DNA of 13,536 bases, taken from a virus (taxonomy: Duplodnaviria > Heunggongvirae > Uroviricota > Caudoviricetes). Below are positions 1 to 13,536 of the stretch, piece by piece; within the stretch, counting starts at the first letter, position 1; the number at the start of each line of letters is the position of its first letter. The position numbers were made by a program, and so were the translations under genes. The stretch lies in IMG/VR virus record IMGVR_UViG_2671180571_000005, positions 1 through 13,536 of that record; one strand, 5' to 3'. The notes under the pieces were generated by a model. The model saw only the letters and a list, made by a program, of their open reading frames with translations, searched no databases and was not told the DNA's origin.

Positions 1-127
1 GATATTGTGTTTTTGTTTATTATCCGTCATTATGTTCTGTTAGTTTGTGACTAAGTTAACGCGTTATTAGTTATCTTATTCTCAAATTGTGTTACGATAA
101 TCCGAGCGGACAATCAGGAGAGGAAAG

Positions 128-2011
128 ATGAGCAAAGTAAAAATCGGTGAATTAATAAACTCACTTGTTAGCGATGTTGAGTCAATAGATAACTCTGACC
201 GTCCTCAAGGGGAAAAAACAAAAAAAATAAAAGCTGTTGCATTAAAATTTAAAAATGCATTATTTAATGACAAGCGAAAGTTTAGGGGGAAAGGATTAGA
301 AAAAAGAATTACAGCCAACACATTCAATGCCTATATGAGCAGGGCCAGAAAACGGTTTGATGATAAACTTCATCATAGCTTTGAAAAAAATATACATCGC
401 CTATCTGAAAAGTATCCTTTATATAATGAGGAGCTATTATCATGGCTTTCTCTACCTGCTGCCGATATTCGCCAGAGAATGTCAGCTTTACAGGCAAAAT
501 TAAAATTAATTCTCCCTTTATCAGAAGATTTATCTAATATCAGAATTGGTGATAACAAAAGTCATAATAAGTTATTAAAATTATCAAATAAATATAAAGA
601 GTGGCAATTCGCCATTTCTGATTTAACTAGCGATAACTGGAAAGATAAGCGCGATTATTTATATAAATTACTACAGCAAGGATCTGCCTTACTTGAGGAG
701 TTGAATCAGCTAAAAGTTAACCATGAGATTCTCTATCATCTTCAACTAAGCCCTGCCGAACGCGCATCTATCCAGCAACGATGGGCAGACGTTCTGCACA
801 ATAAGAAACGTAACGTGGTGGTCATTGATTACCCTAAATATATGCAAGCTATTTACGATATTATAAATAGCCCTGCTACATTAAATAATCTAAACACTCG
901 TTCAGGTATGGCTCCTTTGGCATTTGCACTTGCTGCATTGTCAGGAAGACGAATGATTGAGATTATGTATCAAGGTACATTTACTGTTTCTGGTAAGTAT
1001 ACCGTTGATTTTTTAGGCCAAGCAAAAAAAAGAACTTCTGATGATATAACCAGAAAAATATATACATTATGCGAAGCAAAAACATTTGTTTATTTAATAA
1101 ATGTACTTCGCTCATGCCCAGCAGCATCTGATTTTGATGATGTTGTTAAAGGTTATGGAGATAACGACACACGCTCTGAAAACGGACGGATTAATGCCAT
1201 ATTAGCAAAGGCTTTTAACCCGTGGGTTAAATCATTTTTCAAAGATGACCGCCGTGTTTATAAAGATAGTCGTGCTATTTATGCCCGTATTGCGTATGAA
1301 ATGTTTTTCCGCGTAGATCCTCGTTGGAAAAACGTAGATGAGGATGTTTTCTTTATGGAAATTTTAGGCCATGACGATGAAAACACTCAATTACACTATA
1401 AGCAATTCAAGCTGGCCAACTTCTCAAAGACATGGAGGCCAAATACTGGAAACGAAAATACCAGGCTGGAAGCATTGCAGCAGCTTGATGACGAAATGCC
1501 AGGATTCGCCAGAGGAGATGCCGGAGTTCGTCTGCATAACACAGTTAAGCAGCTGGTAGAGCAGGACCCCTCTATAAAAATCACGAACAGCACTCTAAGA
1601 GCATTCAAATTTAGCCCTACAATGATTAGTCGATACCTGGAATTTGCTGCTGATGCTCTGGGGCAATTTGTTGGCGAAAATGGACAATGGCAGCTGAAAA
1701 TAGATTCTCCAGAAATCGTTATGCCTGACGAAGAAGAGCTGGAAGCAATACCTGAACAGGCGGATGAATTATCAGAGGATGACGATCTGGATGACGACGA
1801 AATTGAGATAGAGGAAGAGAGCATAGAAGAACAGCAACCACCCGCGCCTTCTTCACCTGTATCTAAGCCGGTATTTAAGCCTGTGAGAAATATTGGTGAT
1901 GGCTCATACGTTGTTGAGTTTCATTATAATGGCCAGAATTATGCTTGGTCCGGCAGTGCAAACAGCCCTATGTCAGCAATGCAGTTAGCATGGCTGACAT
2001 ATTTCGGATAA
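128..2011 (+). CDS. telN: Protelomerase (telomere resolvase), TelN/TelK family
   Basis: 627-aa ORF with SD AGGAG (116-120) 7 nt upstream of the ATG. The translation (MSKVKIGELIN..., ...RAIYARIAYEMFF..., acidic C-terminal tail) is recognisably very similar to coliphage N15 TelN as I remember it. Recognised from memory, not searched. Confidence 0.85.
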   Translation: MSKVKIGELINSLVSDVESIDNSDRPQGEKTKKIKAVALKFKNALFNDKRKFRGKGLEKRITANTFNAYMSRARKRFDDKLHHSFEKNIHRLSEKYPLYNEELLSWLSLPAADIRQRMSALQAKLKLILPLSEDLSNIRIGDNKSHNKLLKLSNKYKEWQFAISDLTSDNWKDKRDYLYKLLQQGSALLEELNQLKVNHEILYHLQLSPAERASIQQRWADVLHNKKRNVVVIDYPKYMQAIYDIINSPATLNNLNTRSGMAPLAFALAALSGRRMIEIMYQGTFTVSGKYTVDFLGQAKKRTSDDITRKIYTLCEAKTFVYLINVLRSCPAASDFDDVVKGYGDNDTRSENGRINAILAKAFNPWVKSFFKDDRRVYKDSRAIYARIAYEMFFRVDPRWKNVDEDVFFMEILGHDDENTQLHYKQFKLANFSKTWRPNTGNENTRLEALQQLDDEMPGFARGDAGVRLHNTVKQLVEQDPSIKITNSTLRAFKFSPTMISRYLEFAADALGQFVGENGQWQLKIDSPEIVMPDEEELEAIPEQADELSEDDDLDDDEIEIEEESIEEQQPPAPSSPVSKPVFKPVRNIGDGSYVVEFHYNGQNYAWSGSANSPMSAMQLAWLTYFG

Positions 2012-2022
2012 ATCATACGGTA

Positions 2023-2055
2023 AAGGCACCGAATTATCGGTGCCTTGTTGTGTGG
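2023..2055. terminator. Stem-loop between convergent telN and Bro-N operon; possible bidirectional terminator
   Basis: Perfect 9-bp inverted repeat aaggcaccg (2023-2031) / cggtgcctt (2038-2046) with a 6-nt loop, 12 bp after the telN stop, followed on + by GTTGTGTGG. The U-tract is poor in both directions, so strength is uncertain. Confidence 0.45.
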
Positions 2056-2182
2056 CCTACCTCGCCTGCCCCCTGCAAAGGGTAGAAGTAACGGAGGAAA
2101 CGCGGCTGCAACCACAGACATCACCGCCCCGACTGCGAGGCTTCCCCTCACTAAGAAGGGCATAAATTCGGGCTGGCCAACC

Positions 2183-2956
2183 CTATTTATTAGTGATTTC
2201 TGCTGGCTTTAACTGCGCGGATAACTGCTCAAGTTTTTGAACTGCCAGTTCAAAATGCGCGGGTAACGCCTTTTCCAGATCAGAGTTAATATCGGTGATG
2301 GGCAAATCACCACACGACATACTCCGCCTACCCCCACGAACAACATCACGCAACAACTCTCGTTCATACGTGCGCATGTTCCCCAATGCCGACTCAGCAG
2401 CCGTCAAAATCCGGCGCAGTTCTGCCGTAATTGCTGGCAAATCATCAACAGTTATGGGGTTCGGGGATGGATTACGACACGCCCGACGCAAAGCTAACCA
2501 TACACCGCTAATCCAGGCATTTCGGTACTGAAAACTTTGTGCTATATCGTTAATCAGCCCTCGCAGATACTCTTTCTGCCTCCAGTTCAACGGCTCTGCT
2601 GCTCGCATTGGCTCAGGCTCGATGTAAACGTACTCTCCATTTTTGCGAATAGAGGGCAAGACTTCGTTCGTTACCCATTTGCGAAACCGCCAAGCTGTTG
2701 TGCCTTGCTTCACCGCGTCACGGCAGCGGAGAATGAGGGTGTAAAGACCTGATTCGCTGATGATATTGGCTTGACCTTGACGGCCTATGTTAAACATAGA
2801 TCGCTCATCTTCATCTAATCTAGCGATAGCTTGTGTGACATTCTGGATGCTTAAAGCATTGCAAATATCATTCGCCACAAACCACGGATCGCCGTTAATC
2901 ATCACTACACGTACCTGATGCTCTTCCTGAAAGGAAAAGACTGCTAACGCGCTCAT
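2183..2956 (-). CDS. Bro-N domain protein, putative antirepressor
   Basis: 257-aa ORF with strong SD AGGAGG 4-5 nt upstream. N-terminus FSFQEEHQVRVVMINGDPWFVANDICNALSI matches the Bro-N / phage antirepressor N-terminal signature (F.F....IRV....G.PWF.A.D....L). Start overlaps the stop of the upstream gene as ATGA. Last gene of an icd-like operon, the position occupied by ant in P1. Confidence 0.7.
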   Translation of the reverse strand: MSALAVFSFQEEHQVRVVMINGDPWFVANDICNALSIQNVTQAIARLDEDERSMFNIGRQGQANIISESGLYTLILRCRDAVKQGTTAWRFRKWVTNEVLPSIRKNGEYVYIEPEPMRAAEPLNWRQKEYLRGLINDIAQSFQYRNAWISGVWLALRRACRNPSPNPITVDDLPAITAELRRILTAAESALGNMRTYERELLRDVVRGGRRSMSCGDLPITDINSDLEKALPAHFELAVQKLEQLSAQLKPAEITNK

Positions 2957-3186
2957 TCAGCCTCCTTATCGCGCAGCAAGTGCGACGAGAGAGACGCAGA
3001 ATATCCCTGTGCTTCATGCGTTAACTCACACGCAATCTGCAGAAGTTTTCCAGCCTCTGAGAGGTAAATCGACGCCTCACAACTGGAGACTGTCCGATGG
3101 GCTGATGATACGAGCGCATAGACCTGAGCCAGACGTTCATCCAACGATTCCAGCAGGCCAACAGTGTTCATTTTTACCTGATTCAT
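2953..3186 (-). CDS. Hypothetical protein (77 aa), middle gene of the icd-like/antirepressor operon
   Basis: ORF with SD GAGGTG 5 nt upstream. ATGA overlap with the icd-like ORF upstream and with the Bro-N gene downstream (translational coupling on both sides). No recognisable motif. Confidence 0.55.
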   Translation of the reverse strand: MNQVKMNTVGLLESLDERLAQVYALVSSAHRTVSSCEASIYLSEAGKLLQIACELTHEAQGYSASLSSHLLRDKEAE

Positions 3187-3347
3187 GCAGCCACCTCGCG
3201 CACCGGAATACGGGCAGATAATACCAGGACAAACCGGCTGGCGAACTGGCGACGAGCTTCCCGTTCAGATGACGCGATAGTGGAAAGATGATGAATGTGG
3301 GACTTTTTGTCTGTGCGAACGACTGCCGCAAATTTGAATTTGAACAT
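3183..3347 (-). CDS. icd: Icd-like host cell division inhibitor (54 aa)
   Basis: Not in the supplied ORF track (below size cutoff). My translation: MFKFKFAAVVRTDKKSHIHHLSTIASSEREARRQFASRFVLVLSARIPVREVAA. The pattern F.F.AV.R.D....EREARR...F.L..AR.PV.EV is what I remember for Icd-like proteins of P1-type immI regions. SD GGAG 8 nt upstream; its stop overlaps the next start (ATGA). The 128-aa track ORF 3137..3523 in another frame is probably spurious. Confidence 0.55.
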   Translation of the reverse strand: MFKFKFAAVVRTDKKSHIHHLSTIASSEREARRQFASRFVLVLSARIPVREVAA

Positions 3348-3402
3348 GGTATGCACTCCGTTTTATTGGTCGTGCTACCACCAGAGTTGCGAATCTCTTT
3401 AT

Positions 3403-3482
3403 TGGTGGTAGCCCAGGCGGGGTTCGCAATACCGGTAAACGAAGAAACCGGCCCGACCGAAGTCAGCCCCACCTGAGCCACC
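3403..3482 (-). ncRNA. Candidate C4/CI/cA-type antisense immunity RNA (tRNA-like, 3' ...ACCACCA)
   Basis: On the minus strand the 5' end GGUGGCUCAGG (3482-3472) pairs with the 3' end CCUGGGCUACC (two G-U pairs), giving an acceptor-like stem ending ACCACCA. Internal UUCG-tetraloop hairpin CUGAC-UUCG-GUCGG and CCGGU-N10-ACCGG stem. Two segments (AUUGCGAA at 3430-3423, GCUACCACCA at 3412-3403) are complementary to repeated targets upstream (3552-3565) and downstream (3374-3395) on the same strand. Ends are approximate; folded by eye. Confidence 0.4.
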
Positions 3483-3513
3483 ATAATTCGGATATGCGCA
3501 GGTCTATACACAC

Positions 3514-3536
3514 AAAAAAACACGCTGGCGCGTGTT
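3514..3536 (-). terminator. Rho-independent terminator-like hairpin in the leader of the icd-like operon
   Basis: Minus strand reads AACACGC-GCCA-GCGUGUU followed by a run of U (plus-strand A-run 3514-3520). Sits between the upstream target repeat and the candidate RNA; could be the regulated attenuator or the terminator of the lipoprotein transcript. Confidence 0.4.
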
Positions 3537-3727
3537 GTGCGCTTCGTTTTGCCAGGATTGCGAAGTCCCGACTGCGGGATTTACCGCAGCGAGGTGACTT
3601 TACCTCCAAAACGACGCACACGTCAATAATTTGCAAAGACATTTTACCCCGTGACCAGTCACGGGGACAGGTGTTTTTATAGTTTGCTTGAACAAACGAT
3701 CAGAACATGAACAATGTTATTGTTCCG

Positions 3728-4540
3728 TTATAAGAAAGCCTCACGCGAACGGAACACCCACTCTAGCTGTACTGGATAAATTTCTCCCGTTTTAATATTT
3801 ATTATGCGCGCGGCTAATAACTCACCCATAAAAACCTGAGTTTTATGGCTCATATCTGACGGGTTAAAAATAGTAGGTGATGTTATATCAATATGATTGC
3901 TGCTTAACCCATTTATCTTTGCTAAATATTCAATTCTAAGGTCTTTTACATTAACATCTTTTGGCATTTGTCCTTTTATATCAATATCTGCCCATATTGT
4001 TTCAGGGTTCCCTTCATTTATTTGTGTACTACCAAAGATAATTTCGGCACCTAAAGTATTTAACACTTCTACATCAGCAGATATTCCAAAAGCATTAGCA
4101 CCAACATAGCTTCCATGCTTTGTTATTTCAGAGGAATCGACATGAAAACCATACCATCCAGACATATCTCGAGATGTTATCACGCTATCACTACCGCTAT
4201 TCTCAGCAAAATCACGGTTAAGATATGTTCCTGAGTATGTGATACTTCTAGGGATAGACAAACCTTGAGATGTTAAAACGTTGTTGTATGGCGCGTATGT
4301 TAATGAGTGAACGACATATCCACGCCATGAACCATCATCTATCTTTGATGCAATAATTCTATTAAATTCCTTACCTGTGAGTATTTTGCTGCTAAAATCA
4401 CCAACAGAGTTGATAGGTACTCTTTTTTCTTTTTCGAATTTATACTCAACGTCCGTTGATGCCTTATTATCATATTGATAAGTGCATCCAGATAATAACA
4501 AGATAGAGAGTAATAAAGCTGTTGTTTTTTTGTTACGCAT
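3728..4540 (-). CDS. Lipoprotein of unknown function (AT-rich moron)
   Basis: 270-aa ORF. N-terminus MRNKKTTALLLSILLLSGC has a basic n-region, hydrophobic core and lipobox L-S-G-C (signal peptidase II type). Local GC about 32-35 percent against about 48-50 percent in repA (hand count of 60-bp samples). AT-rich upstream region 4541-4629. Confidence 0.7.
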   Translation of the reverse strand: MRNKKTTALLLSILLLSGCTYQYDNKASTDVEYKFEKEKRVPINSVGDFSSKILTGKEFNRIIASKIDDGSWRGYVVHSLTYAPYNNVLTSQGLSIPRSITYSGTYLNRDFAENSGSDSVITSRDMSGWYGFHVDSSEITKHGSYVGANAFGISADVEVLNTLGAEIIFGSTQINEGNPETIWADIDIKGQMPKDVNVKDLRIEYLAKINGLSSNHIDITSPTIFNPSDMSHKTQVFMGELLAARIINIKTGEIYPVQLEWVFRSREAFL

Positions 4541-4629
4541 AATATTAACTTAACCTATTTGATTAATAATATGTTATTCCATTAAATAAAATATGCCGAG
4601 AACGGTTTAACTTGAACAGTCATCACTAT

Positions 4630-5037
4630 TCAATCAACTTTTTTAGCATCAGCCATACGCTTCAACCAGTAATCAACAATCGGTTGCTCATCCACAGAAT
4701 GTTTACCAGGTATAACTCGCCAGCTATCTTGCGAAAATCTGCCGTACTTACGCGGGAATAGGCCTTTCTTTATCTCCCGCCATGTACTAGGAAAACCATC
4801 CACAAAAGTACCAATTAACAGGAGAGGGACAAAAATCAGAGCTACAAACCATCGTGCAAGAAAGTGTTCAACAACAACATTTTCACCGTTGTAGTAATAC
4901 GCATACGCATCCAATATGCGAATTTTCCTTACCTTAAAAATAGCCTTATGCTGAGAACGACTTAACTTGATACGAATGTATCCCTTATCCAAAGGGGATT
5001 CGTATTCGTATGATTGAACAGCCATTTTTAACCCCAC
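4630..5037 (-). CDS. Hypothetical membrane protein (135 aa)
   Basis: ORF with one strongly hydrophobic segment (WFVALIFVPLLLIGTFV). Start overlaps the end of the upstream 108-aa gene by 10 bp. No recognisable catalytic motif. Confidence 0.5.
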   Translation of the reverse strand: MGLKMAVQSYEYESPLDKGYIRIKLSRSQHKAIFKVRKIRILDAYAYYYNGENVVVEHFLARWFVALIFVPLLLIGTFVDGFPSTWREIKKGLFPRKYGRFSQDSWRVIPGKHSVDEQPIVDYWLKRMADAKKVD

Positions 5038-5354
5038 TCACCATCAGCAAACAAAGCGTTATACTCTGACAATGGTAGACGGTTGCCCTCGATGTAGAGA
5101 TTCAGTTCATACTTCGTCTCCGGGTTTTCCTTGTCGGCTCGTTCCCAACGCTCAGCAGCCTTACGCGCCAATAATTCCACTGCTTTCAGATAATCCTCCG
5201 TACGGAACCAGCCAAAGATAAGGCCACGATCTGTTACAGCCCAGGCGACCTTTTTTTCTTCCTCCTGGATAGCCCTAATGCGTCGTTCGCATTCATCCCG
5301 GCAGAACTGCAGCTGACGGTAATCAAGTTTGTCCAAAAATGCAGTAGTAGACAT
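5028..5354 (-). CDS. Hypothetical protein (108 aa)
   Basis: ORF with SD GGGGAG about 7 nt upstream of the ATG; tightly packed between the small membrane ORF and the 135-aa gene. Function unknown. Confidence 0.5.
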   Translation of the reverse strand: MSTTAFLDKLDYRQLQFCRDECERRIRAIQEEEKKVAWAVTDRGLIFGWFRTEDYLKAVELLARKAAERWERADKENPETKYELNLYIEGNRLPLSEYNALFADGEWG

Positions 5355-5358
5355 ATTT

Positions 5359-5550
5359 TTACTCCCCGTTCACCGAAAATTCACGATAGAAACGTTTCCA
5401 CATACGATAAGTCTGCGCAAATTGTTCACCACGAAACATCGCCTTCCTGGCCTTCATGTTTTCCTTGTGAGACTTTCGGTCTATGAACCAAAACCATTGC
5501 TGGAACACACAAAGCAAGAGACACAAAGATAATATCCACTCATTACCCAT
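5359..5550 (-). CDS. Small hypothetical membrane protein (63 aa)
   Basis: I place the start at the internal ATG (5550) just upstream of the repA stop rather than the track's 102-aa extension, which overlaps repA by about 125 bp. Product MGNEWILSLCLLLCVFQQWFWFIDRK... has one hydrophobic helix. Weak SD. Fills the gap between repA and the 108-aa gene exactly. Confidence 0.35.
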   Translation of the reverse strand: MGNEWILSLCLLLCVFQQWFWFIDRKSHKENMKARKAMFRGEQFAQTYRMWKRFYREFSVNGE

Positions 5551-8500
5551 AGAAAGCGCCCTGCTCTTCGTAGCTGCATGAGCTATTCCCCGTAATGTAT
5601 TCACGTAACCGCCGCAGCTCATTGCTGGAAAGGTGATCCATGAACTCTGTGAGGTACAGGGATGCAAACGTCATAGCTATGCTGGCTGATGACCATGATG
5701 ACATAGTGGCCAACTCCTCACTGGAAAGCGCACTCATCGCCCAGGACTCAGGTACAGCCACTGGCAACACGGCCAAAGCCTCAGAAATTACTGAATGAGG
5801 GGCGTTTTGAACCTGCTCGTTTGTGGATCGCGTTTTATCATCCATATATATATTGAGATCCAAATCGCGATCCATTTCGATGGCTGTCTTCTCGGCTTTA
5901 CGCGTTTTTAGGGTTAGGCCATCTTTCTGACGCTGAACAAGAATATCCAGCATAAATGCCGCTGATTCAGGCTCAACAAAACGCAAGGTTGGACGCTTAT
6001 CGCCGTCTCTGCCGCGACGTTTACCTGTTTTAAGGCCAAGAGAGTCGCAAATGTTTTTAAACAACGCTTCCGGCACTTTAGGCTTCCCTTTTGGCGTCAT
6101 AAAACCACCAATGTGCAGAACGTTATTCAACAGGTCACGGCGTTCGGCTGTCATGAGGTTATCTCGAGCGAATTTGAGACGCTCCTGAGTCGCCTCGCCG
6201 GTCATAGTCTCAGGGTTGATACCGCAGTCGATAAAGTACTGCCGGAGAGTTGCTGATTTAAGCGCATAGAAACCGCGCGCCCCGACTTCAACAGTAGGAG
6301 TAGCTTTTACCTTGTGATCGATTATTCCAGGGAATTTAGTTTTAAAGACATCATCAGCCTGCTCGCGAGTCATCGCGGTCACTACAAAATATTGCCACTG
6401 TCCCGCCTGACGGTATGCGTAGGTAAAATTGATGGCTGCTTCTTCCCGGTCGTAACGACGAGCTGTTACCTCATCTAAAAGCATTGTTTCATAGCGGCGA
6501 ACTTTGTCTCGAGCACCATCGAAATAGAATTTCAGCGTGCCTTCTTCAACCGGTAGTTTCAGTTCGTTCTCAATATCCCAGCGGACAAGTTTTGCTTGTT
6601 CTTCAAGCGTCAGCGCGCGTTTTTTTAGCAGTTCTTCACGCTCTGATTCTTGTGGAGTTTCTGTATTGAGATGCAGATCCAGTGTCTGTTCCCACACAAT
6701 ATCCCGCGCTTCTTTACGCAGATCTTTACCGATATCATTCGCAGCATAATCGGTGGCCAGCGGCGATACCTTATAACCGTCGCTGTGCATGATGCAGATC
6801 ATGTTGCTGGCGTAGTCGTTACGCGCAGACGCTTCAATTGCGGCTGCTTTAATTTTCATCCTGGTAAAGTCGGTATTGGCCACCCCCATTGATATACGGT
6901 CGCCATCGAAAACGACATCCGTCAGTTCACCGTTCATGCCTGCGGTAGCAAGCAATGCCTGGGCGAATGCTCGTTCTATTTTTTGCGGGTCAGTTTCACG
7001 TTTTGCGCGAGCTTTATCAAAGCCGATAATAAATTCTTTTGCTGTACGGTCGCGGCGTAGCATTTGCACTGCGTCGCTGGGTACAACTTCACCACAGAAC
7101 ATGCCGAAATGACGGTCAAAATGTTTTTGCTCAATCGACACACCGGATGAAATAGACGGGCTATAAATCAGGCCGTCGTATTTTTTGACCATCTTTTTCG
7201 GTTGATTGGTAAATGCTTCAACTTCTGGCTCTGGTTTGTTTTTCTGGTTTACACACAGAAATTTCTTACCAGGAAAATGCATTCTCAGGGTGGCGGTCAC
7301 ATCTTCTGCAAAGGTGGAGCTGTCGGTGGCCAACATGATTTTTTCGCCATTCGATACAGCTTTCACCACCTCGGTCATAATGCGATCTTTTTCTGTATAA
7401 AAAACCCGGATTGGCTCACCTGTTTCGCGGTTGCGAACATCAACAGGTAATTCAATTACGTGGATCTGCAGCCATGCCGGTAAACCTAGTTCTTCACGGC
7501 GTTTCATAGCCAGTTCAGCCAGGTCAACCAGCAGATCGTTCGCATCAGCATCCACCATTATTGGGTGTTGTTCCGTTCTGGCCAGCGCGTCAATTAACGT
7601 ATTGAATACAGCCACCGGGTTTTCCATAGCCCGACCGGAAAGAACGGCACGTAGCCCTTGCGTGGCCTCGTCAAAGCCAAAATAGTCGTGCTGGCGCATC
7701 AATGGTTGCCAGCAGTTTTTAACAATCGAGTTTATGCAGATGGTCAGTTTACTGGCGTATGGAGCCATTTCCTGATAGCCAGGGTCCTGATAGTGCAGGA
7801 TATCGGCTTTTACACCTTTTCCTTCTGTCATCATTTCCCACAGGCCACCAATAAGGGAAACACGGTGAGCAACAGAGATACCACGTTCTGAGCTATGCAT
7901 TAAAGGTCGTAACAATCCAGTAGATTTGCCGGAACCCATACCAGCACGAACGATGACTATCCCCTGTAGTGATTGCACATACTTCAGGACGTCATCGGTC
8001 ATTACCGAAGTTTCAAAACGCTTATAGGTGATATGTTGAGGACGTTTATTGGGATCAGTTATTCGTTCGCTGAATGAGCGCGGAGCCTGGGCAATACGGC
8101 ACTTTTTATTCAGGCGACGGGCAATGTGGTCTTTTACCGTAGCGCGATAGATATTTTCCAGCCCAATTTCACGCAGGACGATGCAGAACATGTTAAATAA
8201 GTCTGACGGACTGTTAGGAACCGGACAGGTTAGCATGCCAATATCCACTGCTCTCAGCAGCTCTTTGGCAAAAGTACGACGGTTATCCCGCTTAATTGTC
8301 TTCAGGCGGTTGAGCGTCAGAGATAGCAAATCAGTGCCAGTTTTCAGGCGGTTTGCAGTTGCAAACAGTTGACGTGCTGTTTCACGAAGTCCACGTAGTT
8401 TGTGCAGGTCGTTGAAGTCACTGCACTCCATTTGCGGATCGTCTTCAAAAGTTGGATAGACGCAGCGGACATCGTTGAATTTCGATAAGATTTCATAGCC

Positions 8501-9538
8501 AGTCCGCAGGCCGGTATTCCCTTTTCCTTCTGTAGCTGATTTCCGGTCATTATCCAGTGCGCAGGTGATTTTTGCCGCCGGGTACATGTTTACCAGTTGT
8601 TCCACAACATGAACCATGTTGTTAGCGGATACAGCGACAACCACAGCGTCAAAGCGTTTATCTTTTTTCGTGGCAAGCCAGATGGATGCACCAGTAGCAA
8701 AACCTTCTGTAACAGCGATGTTTTGCGCCCCTTTCAGCTCACCGATAACAAAGCAGGCACCGACGAAATCGCCGCTGGTTACGGCACTGGTCTGGTATTT
8801 TCCACCTTGTTTGTCGATTCGCTGCCAACCAACAATACGACCATCGTAACGACCGTCCAGGTGAGCCAGAGGGATAGCCATATACGTGGTTGGCCCCCTG
8901 CTCCATTTTGCGCTGTCGTGACTGGTCACGCGACGCACATCACACGAATTAAAAACGTCACGAATACCTTTTTTAATCGCATATGGCCATGAGCCGTCTT
9001 CTGCAGGAGCATGTTCCCAAGCACTGTGGAATGCCAGCCATCCCAGCAAACGTTCATGGTCCATTTGGTTGTTTTTCAGGTCATTAATTCGTTTTTGTTC
9101 TTCACGGCGACGACGTGCTTCGGCCTGACGTTCTATTCTTGCCCGTTCTTCTTCCGGTTGTGCGACCACGGTCGCATTATTCCGTTGTTGCTCACGGCGA
9201 TATTCAGAAAACAGGAAGGAGAAACCGCTCCATGAGCCAGCATCGCTGCCTTTATGGACGAAGTTAATGAACGGGTAATCAATCCCTTTGCTGTGTTCCA
9301 GCCGGGAGTAAATTTCTACGCGTCCTTTGAGGCTCTTTTCGAGAGCTTCTGGGGATGTTTTATTGTATGAAGAGTAACGCTCAACACCCCCGCGAGGGTT
9401 GAGTTGGATGTTGTCGGAACAGGCAGACCAGTTGATACCAGCCATCTGTGCCAGCTCGGTTAGTTCATCCCGTGCTGCTTCAATTAGCGAGAACGGATCG
9501 CTGCCAAAGCGATCCGCATAGAAATCGTTTAATGTCAT
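5543..9538 (-). CDS. repA: Replication protein RepA (multidomain primase-helicase, N15 RepA / P4 alpha type)
   Basis: 1331-aa ORF. Primase-like EG(F/Y)ATG motif (VTEGFATGASIW) in the N-terminal half; Walker A GMGSGKST and Walker B-like FGFDEATQ in the central helicase region. Size and position (between telN/immA and cB) match N15 repA (about 1324 aa, as I recall). Confidence 0.85.
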   Translation of the reverse strand: MTLNDFYADRFGSDPFSLIEAARDELTELAQMAGINWSACSDNIQLNPRGGVERYSSYNKTSPEALEKSLKGRVEIYSRLEHSKGIDYPFINFVHKGSDAGSWSGFSFLFSEYRREQQRNNATVVAQPEEERARIERQAEARRRREEQKRINDLKNNQMDHERLLGWLAFHSAWEHAPAEDGSWPYAIKKGIRDVFNSCDVRRVTSHDSAKWSRGPTTYMAIPLAHLDGRYDGRIVGWQRIDKQGGKYQTSAVTSGDFVGACFVIGELKGAQNIAVTEGFATGASIWLATKKDKRFDAVVVAVSANNMVHVVEQLVNMYPAAKITCALDNDRKSATEGKGNTGLRTGYEILSKFNDVRCVYPTFEDDPQMECSDFNDLHKLRGLRETARQLFATANRLKTGTDLLSLTLNRLKTIKRDNRRTFAKELLRAVDIGMLTCPVPNSPSDLFNMFCIVLREIGLENIYRATVKDHIARRLNKKCRIAQAPRSFSERITDPNKRPQHITYKRFETSVMTDDVLKYVQSLQGIVIVRAGMGSGKSTGLLRPLMHSSERGISVAHRVSLIGGLWEMMTEGKGVKADILHYQDPGYQEMAPYASKLTICINSIVKNCWQPLMRQHDYFGFDEATQGLRAVLSGRAMENPVAVFNTLIDALARTEQHPIMVDADANDLLVDLAELAMKRREELGLPAWLQIHVIELPVDVRNRETGEPIRVFYTEKDRIMTEVVKAVSNGEKIMLATDSSTFAEDVTATLRMHFPGKKFLCVNQKNKPEPEVEAFTNQPKKMVKKYDGLIYSPSISSGVSIEQKHFDRHFGMFCGEVVPSDAVQMLRRDRTAKEFIIGFDKARAKRETDPQKIERAFAQALLATAGMNGELTDVVFDGDRISMGVANTDFTRMKIKAAAIEASARNDYASNMICIMHSDGYKVSPLATDYAANDIGKDLRKEARDIVWEQTLDLHLNTETPQESEREELLKKRALTLEEQAKLVRWDIENELKLPVEEGTLKFYFDGARDKVRRYETMLLDEVTARRYDREEAAINFTYAYRQAGQWQYFVVTAMTREQADDVFKTKFPGIIDHKVKATPTVEVGARGFYALKSATLRQYFIDCGINPETMTGEATQERLKFARDNLMTAERRDLLNNVLHIGGFMTPKGKPKVPEALFKNICDSLGLKTGKRRGRDGDKRPTLRFVEPESAAFMLDILVQRQKDGLTLKTRKAEKTAIEMDRDLDLNIYMDDKTRSTNEQVQNAPHSVISEALAVLPVAVPESWAMSALSSEELATMSSWSSASIAMTFASLYLTEFMDHLSSNELRRLREYITGNSSCSYEEQGAFYG
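5800..5910. other. Candidate intragenic replication origin near the 3' end of repA
   Basis: Three copies of GCGTTTT (5802, 5830, 5902), alternating AT run CATATATATATT (about 5843-5854) and three GATC sites within 47 bp (5826, 5857, 5869), about 300 bp from the repA stop. N15 ori is reported to lie inside the 3' part of repA (from memory). Confidence 0.3.
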
Positions 9539-9589
9539 TTTTTAGCCATTCCATGCGAATTATGTTTTTTCGGGTTGAAAAAATCCGCA

Positions 9590-9652
9590 GGAGCAGCCAC
9601 AATAAACGCATCTTGAATTGACGGAATCCGTCGCGTTATTGTGGCTGCTTCC
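9590..9652. repeat. Long imperfect inverted repeat in the repA upstream region
   Basis: Arm 1 ggagcagccacaataaacgc (9590-9609) and arm 2 gcgttattgtggctgcttcc (9633-9652); perfect 13-bp core gcagccacaataa / ttattgtggctgc; 23-bp spacer. Confidence 0.6.
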
Positions 9653-9660
9653 TGAAAAGG

Positions 9661-9689
9661 ACCCGAGTTTGCCGACTCGGGTTTTTTTT
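9661..9689 (+). terminator. Rho-independent terminator, strongest on + strand (opposite to repA and cB)
   Basis: acccgagt (9661-9668) / actcgggt (9675-9682), 6-nt loop, followed by T8 on the + strand. On the minus strand the tail is only CCUUUUUC, so it may also weakly terminate the cB transcript. Confidence 0.6.
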
Positions 9690-9783
9690 CGTCTTTTTTC
9701 TGCTGCTGTAACCTGAGTCAACCCACAGAACATATGCCCTGCATTAAACCAGATTTACAGCAAACAATAAACCCCGTATTAAG

Positions 9784-10380
9784 TCATCTACCCTCAACCA
9801 TGAATGATTTGATCGTTCCGACTATTTGGTGAACAAATTCAAGATCGCTTTTCCTGAAGATAGCGCGTTGTGAATTTGTTCCGTCCAGATAGTAATTTTC
9901 ATCATCAAAACGGGCCAGGCGCTGGATGGTGATATTTCCTGCAGTATCACGAACCAGAACATCCTCGCCGGGGACCAGTTCCAGCGCAGAATCGACCAGG
10001 AGAAAATCGCCAGGCTGATAGTTTCCCTGCGCCAGATTGCTGATAGTTAACGCATAAACAGTATTGCGCTGGCTGATGAATGGCAGGAATCGCTCAGTAT
10101 TTGGAACCTGTCCTGGCTTCCACTCTTCATCAGGTCCACTTTCAGTTGTGCCAATAACAGGAATGCGATCAGGGTCATATTCTGTCCCATACAGCACCCA
10201 ATGCACTGGCTTGCGTAAGCATTTAGCCAGGGCAATACCTATCTCCAGTGACGGCATTACGTCGCCACGTTCTAAGTTTTGGACGCCTGCAATAGAGATA
10301 TCGACAGCCTCAGCAACTTCTCGCAACGTCAGCTTCATCTCTAAACGGCGTGCTTTCAGTCGTTCGCCTCGTGTTTTCAT
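9784..10380 (-). CDS. cB: Prophage repressor, lambda CI-like (N15 CB-type): N-terminal HTH plus S24 peptidase-like C-terminal domain
   Basis: 198-aa ORF. N-terminal HTH (LTLREVAEAVDISIAGVQNLERG); C-terminal region PGDFLLVD...GEDVLVRD...ITIQRL resembles the LexA/CI S24 fold. Divergent from cro with operator-like palindromes between them. Confidence 0.8.
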   Translation of the reverse strand: MKTRGERLKARRLEMKLTLREVAEAVDISIAGVQNLERGDVMPSLEIGIALAKCLRKPVHWVLYGTEYDPDRIPVIGTTESGPDEEWKPGQVPNTERFLPFISQRNTVYALTISNLAQGNYQPGDFLLVDSALELVPGEDVLVRDTAGNITIQRLARFDDENYYLDGTNSQRAIFRKSDLEFVHQIVGTIKSFMVEGR

Positions 10381-10402
10381 AGCTTAATCATAAATGATCT
10401 TC

Positions 10403-10444
10403 TTATAGCTGGCTATAAAATTTATTTATTATAGCTGGCTTTAA
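10403..10444. promoter_or_regulatory. Two operator-like palindromes in the cB-cro divergent promoter region
   Basis: TTATAGC-TG-GCTATAA (10403-10418) and TTATAGC-TG-GCTTTAA (10429-10444), 26 bp centre to centre, in an AT-rich intergenic region containing TATAAT-like hexamers for both divergent genes. Confidence 0.5.
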
Positions 10445-10471
10445 TTGTTGTTTATTGTTTATAATAACAAC

Positions 10472-10693
10472 ATGAAACCAGAAGAACTTATTCGCCATTT
10501 TGGCAGTGTAGAAAAAGCAGCGGCAGGGGTAGGTGTAACACCCGGAGCTGTTTACCAATGGTTAACCGCTGGAGAGATTCCTTCATTGCGGCAAAGCGAT
10601 ATTGAAGTTCGTACTGCTTATAAGCTGAAGAGTGACTTTACAACTCGGCGGGTAAAGCAGTCGATTAAGGAGAGTCGTAAGCGTGGAGCTTGA
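10472..10693 (+). CDS. cro: Cro-like repressor (73 aa)
   Basis: Small HTH protein (GVGVTPGAVYQWLTAGEIP) divergent from the repressor gene. I use the ATG at 10472; the track's start at 10445 is a TTG inside the operator region. A TATAAT at 10460-10465 ends 7 bp before the ATG, so the mRNA may be leaderless. Confidence 0.65.
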   Translation: MKPEELIRHFGSVEKAAAGVGVTPGAVYQWLTAGEIPSLRQSDIEVRTAYKLKSDFTTRRVKQSIKESRKRGA

Positions 10694-11393
10694 GTATATA
10701 CGCAGCTGCGTCTCTACGGCATTGGCTGATGTTCATTATCGCCAGCGTGGCATTCTGGAGGTCCAGCTTGAGCAGATGCGTCTCGGTAGATCAGGACGGT
10801 TTAACAATAAACCAGTCCGGTCAATCAGTGTAGGGGATGATAACTCATACGAAGTGTCCGTTCCTGCTGAGCCGGTTAGATTCCACCAGGGGAAAACATT
10901 TAAACAATCATCAATGTTGCTCACTGATATTGATTTTCAGAGCGCCAGCTGGCGCAGGGCTATTGGTCAGTTGAATAACGAGGAATCAGCCTGGCTTTAT
11001 TATTGCTACGGATGCAAGCCTGATTACAACAATGATGTGATTGTTTGTCAGTGGTTATGGCTTGATTTTCTGGTTGCTCATTCGGGGGCCGGCTTTAAAA
11101 AAATGAAGGCCTCCACGAAAAAAGCCATGCGGAAATTGATTTATTACGCGGCACAGCAGGTTAAATCAGAACTTACGTGTGCTGAGGCAGTTGATGAGAG
11201 AGAACAGGACAGGCATCTGAGTTTTCTACTGAATATATCTATTGATAGCTGGAGACAAGATTATAAAGAACGCTGGCTTTTAATTAAGTCGCGATGTCTG
11301 AGCTTAAATCGAACTGCATTATTAAATGCGGCGGAGAAGCGCAGTGAAATCATCAAACGCCATCGGGCAGGAAGTGCCATTCTGCCTTTGTAA
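10683..11393 (+). CDS. Putative late-gene antiterminator Q-like protein (positional call)
   Basis: 236-aa ORF with GTG start and SD AAGGAG about 10 nt upstream, overlapping the cro stop. Sits where N15 has Q (cB-cro-Q) and is of similar size. I see no unambiguous Q zinc-finger motif, so the functional call is by synteny only. Confidence 0.4.
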   Translation: MELEYIRSCVSTALADVHYRQRGILEVQLEQMRLGRSGRFNNKPVRSISVGDDNSYEVSVPAEPVRFHQGKTFKQSSMLLTDIDFQSASWRRAIGQLNNEESAWLYYCYGCKPDYNNDVIVCQWLWLDFLVAHSGAGFKKMKASTKKAMRKLIYYAAQQVKSELTCAEAVDEREQDRHLSFLLNISIDSWRQDYKERWLLIKSRCLSLNRTALLNAAEKRSEIIKRHRAGSAILPL

Positions 11394-11646
11394 ACAAGTT
11401 ATGTTCAGGAAACCGTCGAAGCCAGAATTAAGATATTCAGGGGTAAGAAATGAATATGTTATCTGGTGTCCAACTTGTGGTTACAGGACACGACCAGATA
11501 GTAATAAGCAGTCTGTAATTGCCGATTGGTATTTATCAAATCAGCCAGGTAATAAGCATATAGAAAATCTTTGGATTAAGCGTTACTTGGAAATCAGAGA
11601 GGGTGCGACCGTGGTCGCACAAGAAAATGAAAATAACGCCATTTAA
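11326..11646 (+). CDS. Hypothetical small protein with CxC / CxxC cysteine pairs; start uncertain
   Basis: Track ORF of 106 aa overlapping the Q-like gene end. Alternative starts: GTG 11344 (SD GGAG 7 nt upstream) or ATG 11401 (no SD). Contains FCLC and CPTCG, a possible small zinc-binding motif. Confidence 0.4.
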   Translation: MRRRSAVKSSNAIGQEVPFCLCKQVMFRKPSKPELRYSGVRNEYVIWCPTCGYRTRPDSNKQSVIADWYLSNQPGNKHIENLWIKRYLEIREGATVVAQENENNAI

Positions 11647-11656
11647 GCAGGGGCCG

Positions 11657-11830
11657 ATGACGCATGATGAAGCAGAGCGTCTTTCAGATACTTATCGGCG
11701 GCGTGGTAAGAAAGTTCTGGTTGTTCGTTCTGATTTTTTAGGTGATGGATATTGCGTTTATGTTCATTTACCTGAATTAGAAAGAACGCCAAAACCATCC
11801 AGAACATATCAACAGAAAATTTGGGTATAG
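11657..11830 (+). CDS. Hypothetical small protein (57 aa)
   Basis: I use the ATG at 11657 (AGGGG 4 nt upstream, 10 nt after the previous stop) rather than the overlapping track start at 11603. No recognisable motif. Confidence 0.35.
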   Translation: MTHDEAERLSDTYRRRGKKVLVVRSDFLGDGYCVYVHLPELERTPKPSRTYQQKIWV

Positions 11831-11853
11831 ATAAACGTTGAGGAGAATTATTC

Positions 11854-12453
11854 GTGACTAATCAGATTATTTACGACAGGAAACGGTCTGATGTAATGAT
11901 TGACCTTGAAACAATGGGTACTAACACATGTGCTCCAATTGTTTCTATCGGGGCAGTGTTTTTTTCTCCAGAAAGTGAGGAATTAGGTCCTACTTTTTAT
12001 GTGCCAGTGAATCTCAGAAGCTCGATGTTGAATGGTGGTGTCGCCGATGGTGATACCATTTTATGGTGGTTGAAACAGAGCAAGGAAGCCAGAGCCGCAA
12101 TTTGTACTAATGATGCCCTTGATATTAAGGATGCACTTTTTGAATTATCACACTTTATTACTTGCCATGCATGTAATTTAAAAAAATTGAAAGTATGGGG
12201 AAATGGAGCAACTTTCGATAATGTAATTTTACGCGGTGCTTATGAGCGCGTTGGCTTAGTCTGTCCGTGGGAATGTTTTAATGATCAGGATGTTCGAACA
12301 ATCGTTAATCTTGGTCAGTTTATTGGTTTTAATCCTAAAAAAGATATGCCATTTGATGGCGAACGACACAATGCCCTGGCTGATGCTATTCATCAGGCTA
12401 AATATGTATCCGCAATTTTCTCCCGTCTTGTAAAAGGGCAAGGAGAATCGTAA
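11854..12453 (+). CDS. DEDDh-family 3'-5' exonuclease (DnaQ/RNase T-like fold)
   Basis: GTG start with SD AGGAG 8 nt upstream. Exo I motif MIDLETMG (D-x-E), Exo II motif GNGATFDNVIL, Exo III motif HNALADAIH (H-x4-D). Confidence 0.7.
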   Translation: MTNQIIYDRKRSDVMIDLETMGTNTCAPIVSIGAVFFSPESEELGPTFYVPVNLRSSMLNGGVADGDTILWWLKQSKEARAAICTNDALDIKDALFELSHFITCHACNLKKLKVWGNGATFDNVILRGAYERVGLVCPWECFNDQDVRTIVNLGQFIGFNPKKDMPFDGERHNALADAIHQAKYVSAIFSRLVKGQGES

Positions 12454-12872
12454 TGGCAAAGGCTTTTACACCAGAACAGAGAGAAGAACTGAATAAACAA
12501 ATTGTGGAACTCGTGCGCCTGAATGGACGAGGAACGGTTAGGCAACTTGCGGATGAAACTGGTATTAGCCGGTGTGCTGTTAGTCGTTTATCAAGAGAGC
12601 TTGCTGCCAGTGGTGATTTGTATATCTCTGGCTCCGGGATATTTCTGTCTGCACAAGCGCGCAAGGACTGGCAAAACGCCCGCAAAAAGCTATCAAGAGT
12701 AAAGCCGAAGAAATCGGTAGTGGTTGATCCAGACCTTATCTGGTCATTACCTGACGGAGAAATACGTCGTTACGACAGGCGCTTGAACATGATTTGTCAC
12801 GATTGCCGGAAGAGCGAAGTTATGCAGCGTGTGCTGGCGTTTTATCAGGGAAATTTTCAGGAGGTGGCGTAG
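12453..12872 (+). CDS. HTH DNA-binding protein (139 aa)
   Basis: ATG overlaps the exonuclease stop (TAATG); SD AAGGAG upstream. N-terminal helix-turn-helix-like segment TVRQLADETGISRCAVSRLSRELAASG; basic central region. Confidence 0.6.
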   Translation: MAKAFTPEQREELNKQIVELVRLNGRGTVRQLADETGISRCAVSRLSRELAASGDLYISGSGIFLSAQARKDWQNARKKLSRVKPKKSVVVDPDLIWSLPDGEIRRYDRRLNMICHDCRKSEVMQRVLAFYQGNFQEVA

Positions 12873-13162
12873 TGAATATCGACACGACAATAACGCTCGA
12901 TACGCTCCTAAATTCCGGCCTGGCACTTCTCGGTTGGCTTTACATCATGTCCCGTACATGGCGATGGCTGGGTTCCATTTTCCTGAAACAGTGGAAAAAA
13001 CGGCGCAAACAGGAACTACGCCAGAAGGCATTAGAAGCGTTCTATGACGCATTTGAACTTAGCAGCATTGAATCTGGCACAACAGCCAGGATAGCGACAA
13101 AAGGCGACCTGATGATAGTGATGTTCCGACAGGAGAGAGCAGAGAAAGGGGAATCAGCATGA
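12872..13162 (+). CDS. Small membrane protein (96 aa from GTG)
   Basis: Track ORF 12794..13162. I place the start at GTG 12872, which overlaps the upstream TAG (TAGTG) and has SD AGGAGG 7 nt upstream. One hydrophobic helix LLNSGLALLGWLYIM followed by a basic stretch KQWKKRRKQ. Confidence 0.45.
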   Translation: MNIDTTITLDTLLNSGLALLGWLYIMSRTWRWLGSIFLKQWKKRRKQELRQKALEAFYDAFELSSIESGTTARIATKGDLMIVMFRQERAEKGESA

Positions 13163-13536
13163 AATTTTACAAATTTTCTGAGTTGGTGAATCGCATTTTG
13201 TCCAACAACCACAGCCATCGTCGCGATATGGATGTAACAATCGTTGTTCATTCGCCTGGCAGCATTGGTTCAACACCTTCAGTTGAGGTTCAGTCAATTC
13301 ACGCTGGTTTTGATTGGGATTCCGGGAAAGTGCTTATTTTCCCATCACAGCCACTGACCACGCTAACACCAGAACAGATTACTGATATCACTGATAGTGT
13401 GCGCAAAGGTCAGTCTTGGCACGCATATCAGGAATATAAAAATCATAAAGAGCAGTTGGAAAAATTGTCGATTGAGTTGGAATCAGCCAAAAATCACATA
13501 GCAGAACTGGAAGCCAAACCTGTAAGCCAAACTTAC
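13159..13536 (+). CDS. Hypothetical protein, 3'-truncated by the window end
   Basis: ATG at 13159 overlaps the previous stop (ATGA); open to the last base of the window (126 codons, no stop). Not in the track because incomplete. The last part looks coiled-coil-like (EQLEKLSIELESAKNHIAELEAK). Confidence 0.5.
   Translation, partial: MKFYKFSELVNRILSNNHSHRRDMDVTIVVHSPGSIGSTPSVEVQSIHAGFDWDSGKVLIFPSQPLTTLTPEQITDITDSVRKGQSWHAYQEYKNHKEQLEKLSIELESAKNHIAELEAKPVSQTY

Follow-up and report, generated by a model that had tools for sequence, protein, structure and literature searches.

The lipoprotein gene and its cassette

The stretch analysed here, referred to as the window, comprises positions 1 to 13,536 of the IMG/VR record IMGVR_UViG_2671180571_000005 and covers, in 13.5 kb, the control and replication region in the left arm of an N15-like linear phage-plasmid. 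By whole-window megablast it matches Escherichia phage-plasmids at 98% identity, and N15, phiKO2 and Klebsiella telomere phages at 74-77%. Its minus strand carries a gene for a lipoprotein of 270 amino acids (aa), contained in a selectively maintained accessory cassette. The lipoprotein is an orphan, and the cassette lies in a hotspot known for envelope-directed cargo. The gene and the cassette are defined by the following features (GC, content of guanine plus cytosine):

3728-4540, minus strand: lipoprotein open reading frame (ORF)
4484-4540, minus strand: signal peptide and lipobox, residues 1-19 of the protein, MRNKKTTALLLSILLLSGC, recognised from sequence
4541-4629, minus strand: AT-rich spacer upstream of the gene, 89 bp, GC 24.7%, of which 4541-4614 is cassette-specific
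3706-4614, minus strand: exchangeable cargo cassette, 909 bp, GC 34.5%, delimited by its junctions with PhiR46_1

The ORF is intact from ATG to TAA. Its N-terminus, MRNKKTTALLLSILLLSGC, opens with a positive n-region, followed by a hydrophobic core and then by the lipobox L-S-G-C, which fits the bacterial-lipoprotein signal pattern [LVI][ASTVI][GAS]C. The codon for Cys19, the predicted acylated N-terminus, is at 4484-4486. Under the +2 rule of the E. coli Lol pathway, a lipoprotein without Asp at position +2 is expected to go to the outer membrane. The residue at +2 after Cys19 is Thr, and no member of the family described below has Asp there; the lipoprotein is thus predicted to be lipid-anchored and to reside at the outer membrane, on its periplasmic face. 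The RefSeq homologue of the coding sequence, WP_052939602.1, is named 'hypothetical protein'. A first-pass annotation of this DNA had called a 270-aa lipoprotein gene between the replication and anti-immunity modules. Both the call and the placement hold: in addition to the intact ORF and the canonical lipobox, 17 of 18 family members retain the lipid-anchor cysteine (with a canonical lipobox in 15), and the gene is flanked by the anti-immunity operon on one side and, on the other, by the replication module, in which repA is accompanied by two small genes.

The gene has a GC of 35.5% and a GC at third codon positions (GC3) of 26.6%, against 50.9% GC in the left flank and 43.6% in the right. 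The AT-rich composition stressed by the first-pass annotation stands in that no other of the 12 genes measured in the window has so low a GC, but low GC is not unique to it, with the protelomerase gene telN at 38.4% and a 3'-5' exonuclease gene at 39.7%. These two genes are also AT-rich relative to repA, and the backbone is compositionally mosaic.

Compared with PhiR46_1, which is 98-99% identical on either side, the cassette has sharp junctions at 3705/3706 and 4614/4615. It consists of the lipoprotein gene with 22 bp of cassette-specific sequence 3' and 74 bp 5'. The same slot in PhiR46_1 holds an unrelated 322-bp cassette for a 95-aa secreted protein with four cysteines. That protein has a cleavable signal peptide and is encoded at L001 (PhiR46_1) 3086-3373 (minus strand), with another copy at L017 3750-4037. 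The depositors' label for it, 'Spackle exclusion protein', could not be confirmed: the protein has no match among PDB sequences, and its one family match is phrog_26765, of unknown function. Other occupants of the slot are a 74-aa protein in close relatives, a 94-aa protein in an Enterobacter relative, and gp33 in N15. The cassette is flanked on both sides by an 8-bp direct repeat, CTTGAACA, at 3687-3694 and 4611-4618, the right copy spanning the 4614/4615 junction. The window contains three copies, where shuffling predicts 0.59; the repeat may be recombination microhomology or chance, and this excess is too weak for a recombination site to be assigned.

A search of 5,426 complete E. coli genomes found 17 that carry the backbone, three of which have the cassette, always on plasmids. 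A further view is given by PLSDB, where seven Escherichia records contain it at 95-99% identity. Clinical isolates from blood, urine and faeces are among the carriers. The first-pass annotation had taken the gene for a horizontally acquired moron and suggested looking for it at this position in N15-like relatives. The cassette behaves as an accessory, compositionally deviant unit, absent from the 98%-identical PhiR46_1 and found in only 3/17 E. coli backbones; universal conservation with a backbone-like composition therefore does not apply. Patchy presence with sharp junctions and a deviant base composition are both marks of a moron; a third mark, independent transcription, is taken up below.

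Klebsiella phage NAR688 reveals what else the slot can hold. Its homology to the window ends at 3713 and resumes at 5164, and the interval (L022 3641-5735) holds genes for a 377-aa protein, hydrophobic at its C-terminus, and, in the opposite orientation, for a 181-aa protein with multiple transmembrane segments. These are TelA (L022 3807-4940, plus strand) and ImmA (L022 4967-5512, minus strand), respectively. Byers et al. described TelA/ImmA as a telocin:immunity pair located between RepA and the protelomerase, and detected both proteins by lysogen proteomics (PMC12042878). As the left junctions of the two cargoes fall within 8 bp of each other (window 3705 versus 3713), the lipoprotein cassette occupies this "telocin locus". 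The detection of TelA and ImmA in lysogens indicates that, in a relative, the interval is expressed in the prophage state and that cargo there is envelope-acting.

The lipoprotein cassette resembles the TelA/ImmA cassette in using the same slot and in varying between closely related elements. It differs in that its gene is on the backbone strand, and in having neither a pore-forming or peptidoglycan-degrading toxin nor an immunity protein with four transmembrane segments. A telocin/immunity cassette was rejected as a description of it: there is a single ORF, with no similarity to TelA or ImmA of NAR688. Nor was a toxin-like neighbour of the lipoprotein homologues found in any context examined. 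The occupation of the same slot by a telocin:immunity pair, together with the small-plasmid vehicles described below, would suit an orphan immunity or inhibitor protein that faces the periplasm, has no linked toxin gene and protects the carriers of the element. Its targets might be periplasm-acting toxins such as bacteriocins or telocins that degrade peptidoglycan (the pesticin-like TelB, colicin Z-like TelC/D or colicin M), type VI secretion system amidases or phage tail lysozymes. We regard such a role as rather unlikely, though it is the main rival of the explanation favoured below.

The protein family and its carriers

The family is small. A word-indexed search of 5.8 billion clusters returned five clusters, and repeating it with a profile added one further protein only. 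When 1.84 billion representatives were searched exhaustively with a profile, 20 hits reached an expectation value (E) <= 1e-3, seven of them below 1e-10. The 13 near-full-length hits retrieved are 243-303 aa long, nearly all with a lipobox, and their named sources are Serratia, Tatumella, Providencia, Klebsiella michiganensis and Xanthomonas. Members share the motifs Y-x-G-x-N-A-F-G, P-T-[LI]-x-x-P and L-[LI]-A-A-R-L-[IV]-N-x-K (in its longer form L-L-A-A-R-L-I-N-x-K-T-G-x-x-Y-P). Residues Y145, N149, A150 and G152 never vary, and conservation reaches at least 90% at P227, A243 and A244. Two extra cysteines occur together in ten members and are both missing from eight, with no member having just one. 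This all-or-none pattern suggests a disulfide, in keeping with an extracytoplasmic protein that probably tolerates disulfides; the subfamily of the window protein is a divergent branch that lacks the pair.

PHROG 13753 is the sole library family matched. The window protein matches it with E = 3.9e-4 over residues 135-259, and 15 of its 18 relatives do so as well, with a best E of 3.7e-10. On this evidence, the window protein can be assigned to the PHROG 13753 superfamily, which has no functional annotation; the match leaves the N-terminal domain (residues 38-135) uncovered. Searches of Pfam, NCBIfam and the PDB (phmmer and hmmsearch), with either the single protein or an 18-member profile, gave only noise at the level of the signal peptide. 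No match was obtained by tblastn of the window protein against 50,697 phage records, NAR688 included, and a literature search found no paper on the protein accessions, the PHROG identifier or PhiR46_1. An AlphaFold model based on a 6-sequence alignment had a predicted local distance difference test score (pLDDT) of 51, which rose to 83.9, with a predicted template-modelling score of 0.77, when 18 diverse relatives were used. In this model, residues 20-37 form a disordered tether, the N-terminal part is alpha/beta, and the C-terminal half, to which the PHROG match is confined, is built from very long antiparallel hairpins. No structural match to it was found in the PDB. Within the searches made, the protein is an orphan in both sequence and fold.

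The ratio of nonsynonymous to synonymous substitution rates (dN/dS) is 0.23 between the window gene and L037 and 0.10 between the small-plasmid copies L003 and L004, indicating purifying selection on the lipoprotein gene. The rarity and patchiness of the gene, and the lack of a function from any library, are what would be expected of an AT-rich ORF that hitch-hikes, non-functional or selfish, and confers no phenotype. We consider this highly improbable given these dN/dS values, the confident predicted fold (pLDDT 84), the retention of the gene as the only cargo on minimal plasmids, and the conservation of its length and of about 100 invariant residues among copies that are 52-62% identical and come from unrelated elements.

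At least five element types carry intact homologues of similar length. Enterobacter N15-like elements have one in the same slot. Others are carried by mobilisable plasmids of about 3.3-4.4 kb from Salmonella, Enterobacter and Klebsiella (18 contigs; L003, L004 and L023-L027), on which the lipoprotein gene and a gene for a 143-aa winged-helix protein are the only genes beside those for mobilisation (relaxase, NikA, MbeD-type). The winged-helix gene, Rep- or regulator-like, precedes the lipoprotein gene by 25 bp on these plasmids. It has no counterpart in the window, and the lipoprotein gene therefore moves alone. An Erwinia lambdoid prophage carries a homologue between tail genes K and I, alongside an Ail/Lom gene and two antirepressor morons, while another siphovirus has one between the tail chaperone and tape-measure genes. 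In Xanthomonas hortorum prophages (L012-L015), a distant homologue lies 18 bp downstream of an S24 CI-type repressor gene on the same strand (L012 2992-3810, P0025). This position behind a CI repressor resembles that of rexAB. The X. hortorum copy has an ordinary signal peptide without a lipobox. Taken together, the sites occupied by the homologues are of the sort typically held by genes for lysogenic conversion or exclusion.

Several observations concern the mobility of the gene. In all six contexts measured, the GC of the homologue is below that of its locus. The copy on the Enterobacter phage-plasmid is 68% identical to the small-plasmid copy and 58% identical to the window copy, with backbone proteins at 63-77%. 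The gene tree is thus incongruent with the backbone, from which it follows that the gene moves between element types. Pattern scans of 185,579 species-representative genomes found one locus, the Erwinia prophage, and a pattern for the close family found none. The family is restricted to mobile elements, occurring almost only on phages and small plasmids.

The small plasmids raise the question of whether the gene was borrowed from them for plasmid-type entry or surface exclusion, limiting redundant conjugative DNA uptake, or for some other maintenance benefit. The best-sampled relatives (the 18 contigs) are on mobilisable plasmids of about 4 kb, next to relaxase, NikA-like and MbeD/MobD 'mobilization/exclusion' genes, and the Enterobacter phage-plasmid copy is nearer to theirs than to the window copy. 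However, mobilisable plasmids build no mating pore of their own and would not be expected to need a dedicated exclusion lipoprotein, nothing related to conjugation surrounds the homologues in integrated lambdoid and Xanthomonas prophages, and the protein has no similarity to TraT or MbeD. Such an origin of its function is very unlikely.

Lysogenic conversion directed at an animal or plant host, by serum or complement resistance, adhesion or survival in the manner of Bor, Iss, TraT and Lom, was weighed against the same set of carriers. The Erwinia prophage copy shares one moron island with an Ail/Lom outer-membrane protein, the phage-plasmid backbone itself carries Lom, and the clinical carriers noted above come from blood, urine and faeces. 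TraT is moreover a plasmid-borne outer-membrane lipoprotein of comparable size. On the other hand, the protein is not similar to the TraT or Bor/Iss Pfam families, and the gene is very rare (3/5426 complete E. coli genomes), unlike successful virulence morons. Its homologues in Xanthomonas, Erwinia, Serratia and Tatumella are from plant-associated or environmental bacteria, so no single host niche is implied. Conversion of this kind is improbable, though less so than a plasmid-exclusion role.

The backbone and transcription of the cassette

The remaining features of the window, in window order, are as follows:

128-2011, plus strand: protelomerase gene (telN), GC 38.4%, GC3 31.8%
2183-2956, minus strand: Bro-N antirepressor gene
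after the Bro-N antirepressor gene: gp31-like gene and icd-like gene of the anti-immunity operon
3401-3488, minus strand: C4 antisense RNA (Rfam, 82 bits)
about 3448-3460 and about 3519-3536: T-run terminators in the anti-immunity control region
3515-3590, minus strand: isrK-like RNA (Rfam, 53 bits)
3626 to 3597, minus strand: promoter-like site TTGACG-18-TAAAGT of the anti-immunity operon, not part of the cassette
3647-3666: GC-rich backbone hairpin CCCCGTGAC-(loop)-GTCACGGGG, between the cassette and the anti-immunity promoter
4630-5037 and 5028-5354, minus strand: two backbone genes (phrog_15458 and phrog_10878), downstream of repA on the same strand
5543-9538, minus strand: repA, for a 1331-aa RepA, GC 48.5%
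beyond repA: genes for a CB-type repressor, cro and Q
11854-12453: 3'-5' exonuclease gene, GC 39.7%, GC3 30.0%

The first-pass annotation had given the lipoprotein gene an AT-rich promoter region of its own, and this part of its account was not supported. No minus-strand sigma-70 site was found in the 89-bp spacer by a consensus scan, and a relaxed scan gave at best 8 of 12 hexamer matches, although such scans could miss a weak or non-sigma-70 promoter. The only Shine-Dalgarno-like element upstream of the gene is a weak AGG. No minus-strand terminator was found between the repA-distal genes and the ORF (5100 to 3728), and no T-run terminator inside the cassette. The hairpin at 3647-3666 is common to PhiR46_1, and its region folds with z = -3.6; lacking a U-run on the minus strand, it is unproven as a terminator. 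By consensus scanning, the cassette accordingly has neither a promoter nor a terminator of its own. The lambda-type morons (bor and lom, in the Hendrix/Juhala definition) are similar to it in compositional anomaly, presence/absence, an envelope product and the tail-region sites of the homologues; the difference is that the window cassette has no detectable private promoter or terminator.

The homologues mostly lie 18-62 bp behind an upstream gene. Gaps this small, in most contexts, point to an operon-embedded cassette as opposed to an autonomous transcription unit. In the window, the repA operon must be active in the plasmid prophage, no private promoter is visible and no terminator intervenes. 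Read-through from the repA operon, via the two repA-distal genes, would therefore seem at least as likely as autonomous transcription.

Directly downstream of the lipoprotein cassette, the anti-immunity control region is complete and represents an RNA-controlled antirepressor operon of the P1 immI / N15 immA type. The N15 cA 'secondary immunity repressor' matches window positions 3011-3722. A second break of cassette type is seen against PhiR46_1, where homology ends at 2072 and resumes at 2874. The corresponding window interval, 2073-2873, spans the greater part of the Bro-N antirepressor gene; in its place PhiR46_1 has no more than a 54-aa ORF. The region is present twice, in inverted orientation, in IMGVR_UViG_3300045988_113976 and in several PLSDB records (e.g. 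'plasmids' of 56-62 kb or 75-91 kb). These two-copy inverted records of telomere phage-plasmids look like head-to-head assembly artefacts or replicative dimers.

Envelope protection as the candidate function

Prophage lipoproteins that exclude phages by receptor blocking have been described, namely Cor (PMC11436027) and the mEpimmI Lpp proteins (PMC11893012). Among envelope-level benefits to the carrier cell, superinfection exclusion, whether a receptor is masked or the periplasmic step of entry is blocked, has the best precedent for phage lipoproteins. The protein studied here shares with Cor (phi80, N15 and HK022) and Llp (T5) that all are phage-encoded exported lipoproteins carried as accessory genes. 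Cor and Llp are proteins of about 70-80 aa that mask an outer-membrane receptor against superinfection, and N15 itself has cor. TraT of F-like plasmids offers another likeness, as an outer-membrane lipoprotein of about 240 aa that is borne by mobile elements and has a protective envelope role.

By analogy, we tentatively favour a lysogen-expressed envelope-protection factor, most readily one of superinfection exclusion, as a possible role for the lipoprotein, a proposal drawn from its genomic context. The segment 3706-4614 would be a horizontally exchanged cargo cassette at an accessory-gene hotspot of N15-like telomere phage-plasmids. The plasmid prophage would produce its protein, mainly through transcription that runs on from the repA operon, which is needed constitutively. 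Once exported and lipid-anchored at the outer membrane, it may protect the envelope of the lysogen against incoming attack. It could do so by binding an outer-membrane receptor from the periplasmic side, thus excluding other phages, or by obstructing a periplasmic step of tail-tip penetration or DNA ejection. Expression in lysogens, location at the outer membrane and a protective function are all inferred. In support of this proposal, homologues and cassette together occupy a prophage-expressed slot, a site behind a repressor, tail moron islands and minimal plasmids on which they are cargo, a combination that suggests a benefit to the carrier exerted at the envelope.

A number of points weigh against this proposal. 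As the first-pass annotation had remarked, the protein is much larger than either: at 270 aa it is 3-4 times the length of the known receptor-blocking lipoproteins, and no sequence relationship to them was found. The Cor family (phrog_1119) was matched only at E = 0.13 over residues 4-48, that is, the signal peptide, and by one of the 18 relatives at E = 0.0095. Library scans with the window protein gave no match to the Llp family. Neither the window protein (E <= 1) nor any of the 18 relatives (E <= 0.1) has a Pfam match to TraT, and none of them matches Bor/Iss, a lipoprotein of about 100 aa compared with 270 aa here. T4 Spackle (Sp), a small inhibitor of lysozyme in the periplasm, was likewise rejected, the window protein being without a sequence match in the phage collection or the PDB. 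PADLOC-DB v2 returned no family for the window protein, and one of the 18 relatives gave a marginal match to NsnC (E = 0.0026). As judged from sequence, then, the window protein is a member of none of the Cor, Llp and TraT families, and would at most work like them.

Cor is encoded beside tail-fibre genes and is tied to FhuA-using phages; the window cassette, by contrast, does not co-segregate with J or side-fibre alleles, several of which are common to lipoprotein-positive and -negative elements, in a comparison where the negative status of some records was taken from 87% window coverage. Because these alleles are shared with negative elements, co-evolution of the protein with the receptor-binding proteins of its own phage is not obvious. 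A signature that would be expected if the protein were a Cor/Llp-type blocker of its own phage's receptor is thus missing, which weakens the case for one. Further, lysogen expression is extrapolated from a Klebsiella relative with different cargo, and the contextual evidence also fits other envelope functions.

Most probably, the lipoproteins form a new family within a known kind, the envelope-protection lipoproteins of prophages and plasmids. A more far-reaching version seems rather unlikely: an undescribed outer-membrane lipoprotein family, restricted to mobile elements and with a fold unlike any solved or predicted viral structure, which guards the envelope against phages, periplasm-acting bacteriocins or both by a mechanism other than that of Cor and Llp, and which travels as a single-gene cassette among telomere phage-plasmids, lambdoid prophages and minimal mobilisable plasmids, with the telocin hotspot of the Klebsiella telomere phages as its slot.

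N15-type phage-plasmids are common in clinical Enterobacteriaceae. The interval between RepA and TelN has recently been shown to hold lysogen-expressed interbacterial weapons in Klebsiella, and the Escherichia lineage puts unrelated exported proteins into the same slot as the Klebsiella telocins. With the 270-aa lipoprotein, one concrete gene can be named as a candidate for a new function in exclusion or immunity, and what it does would tell whether the RepA-TelN hotspot is a general "envelope warfare" locus.

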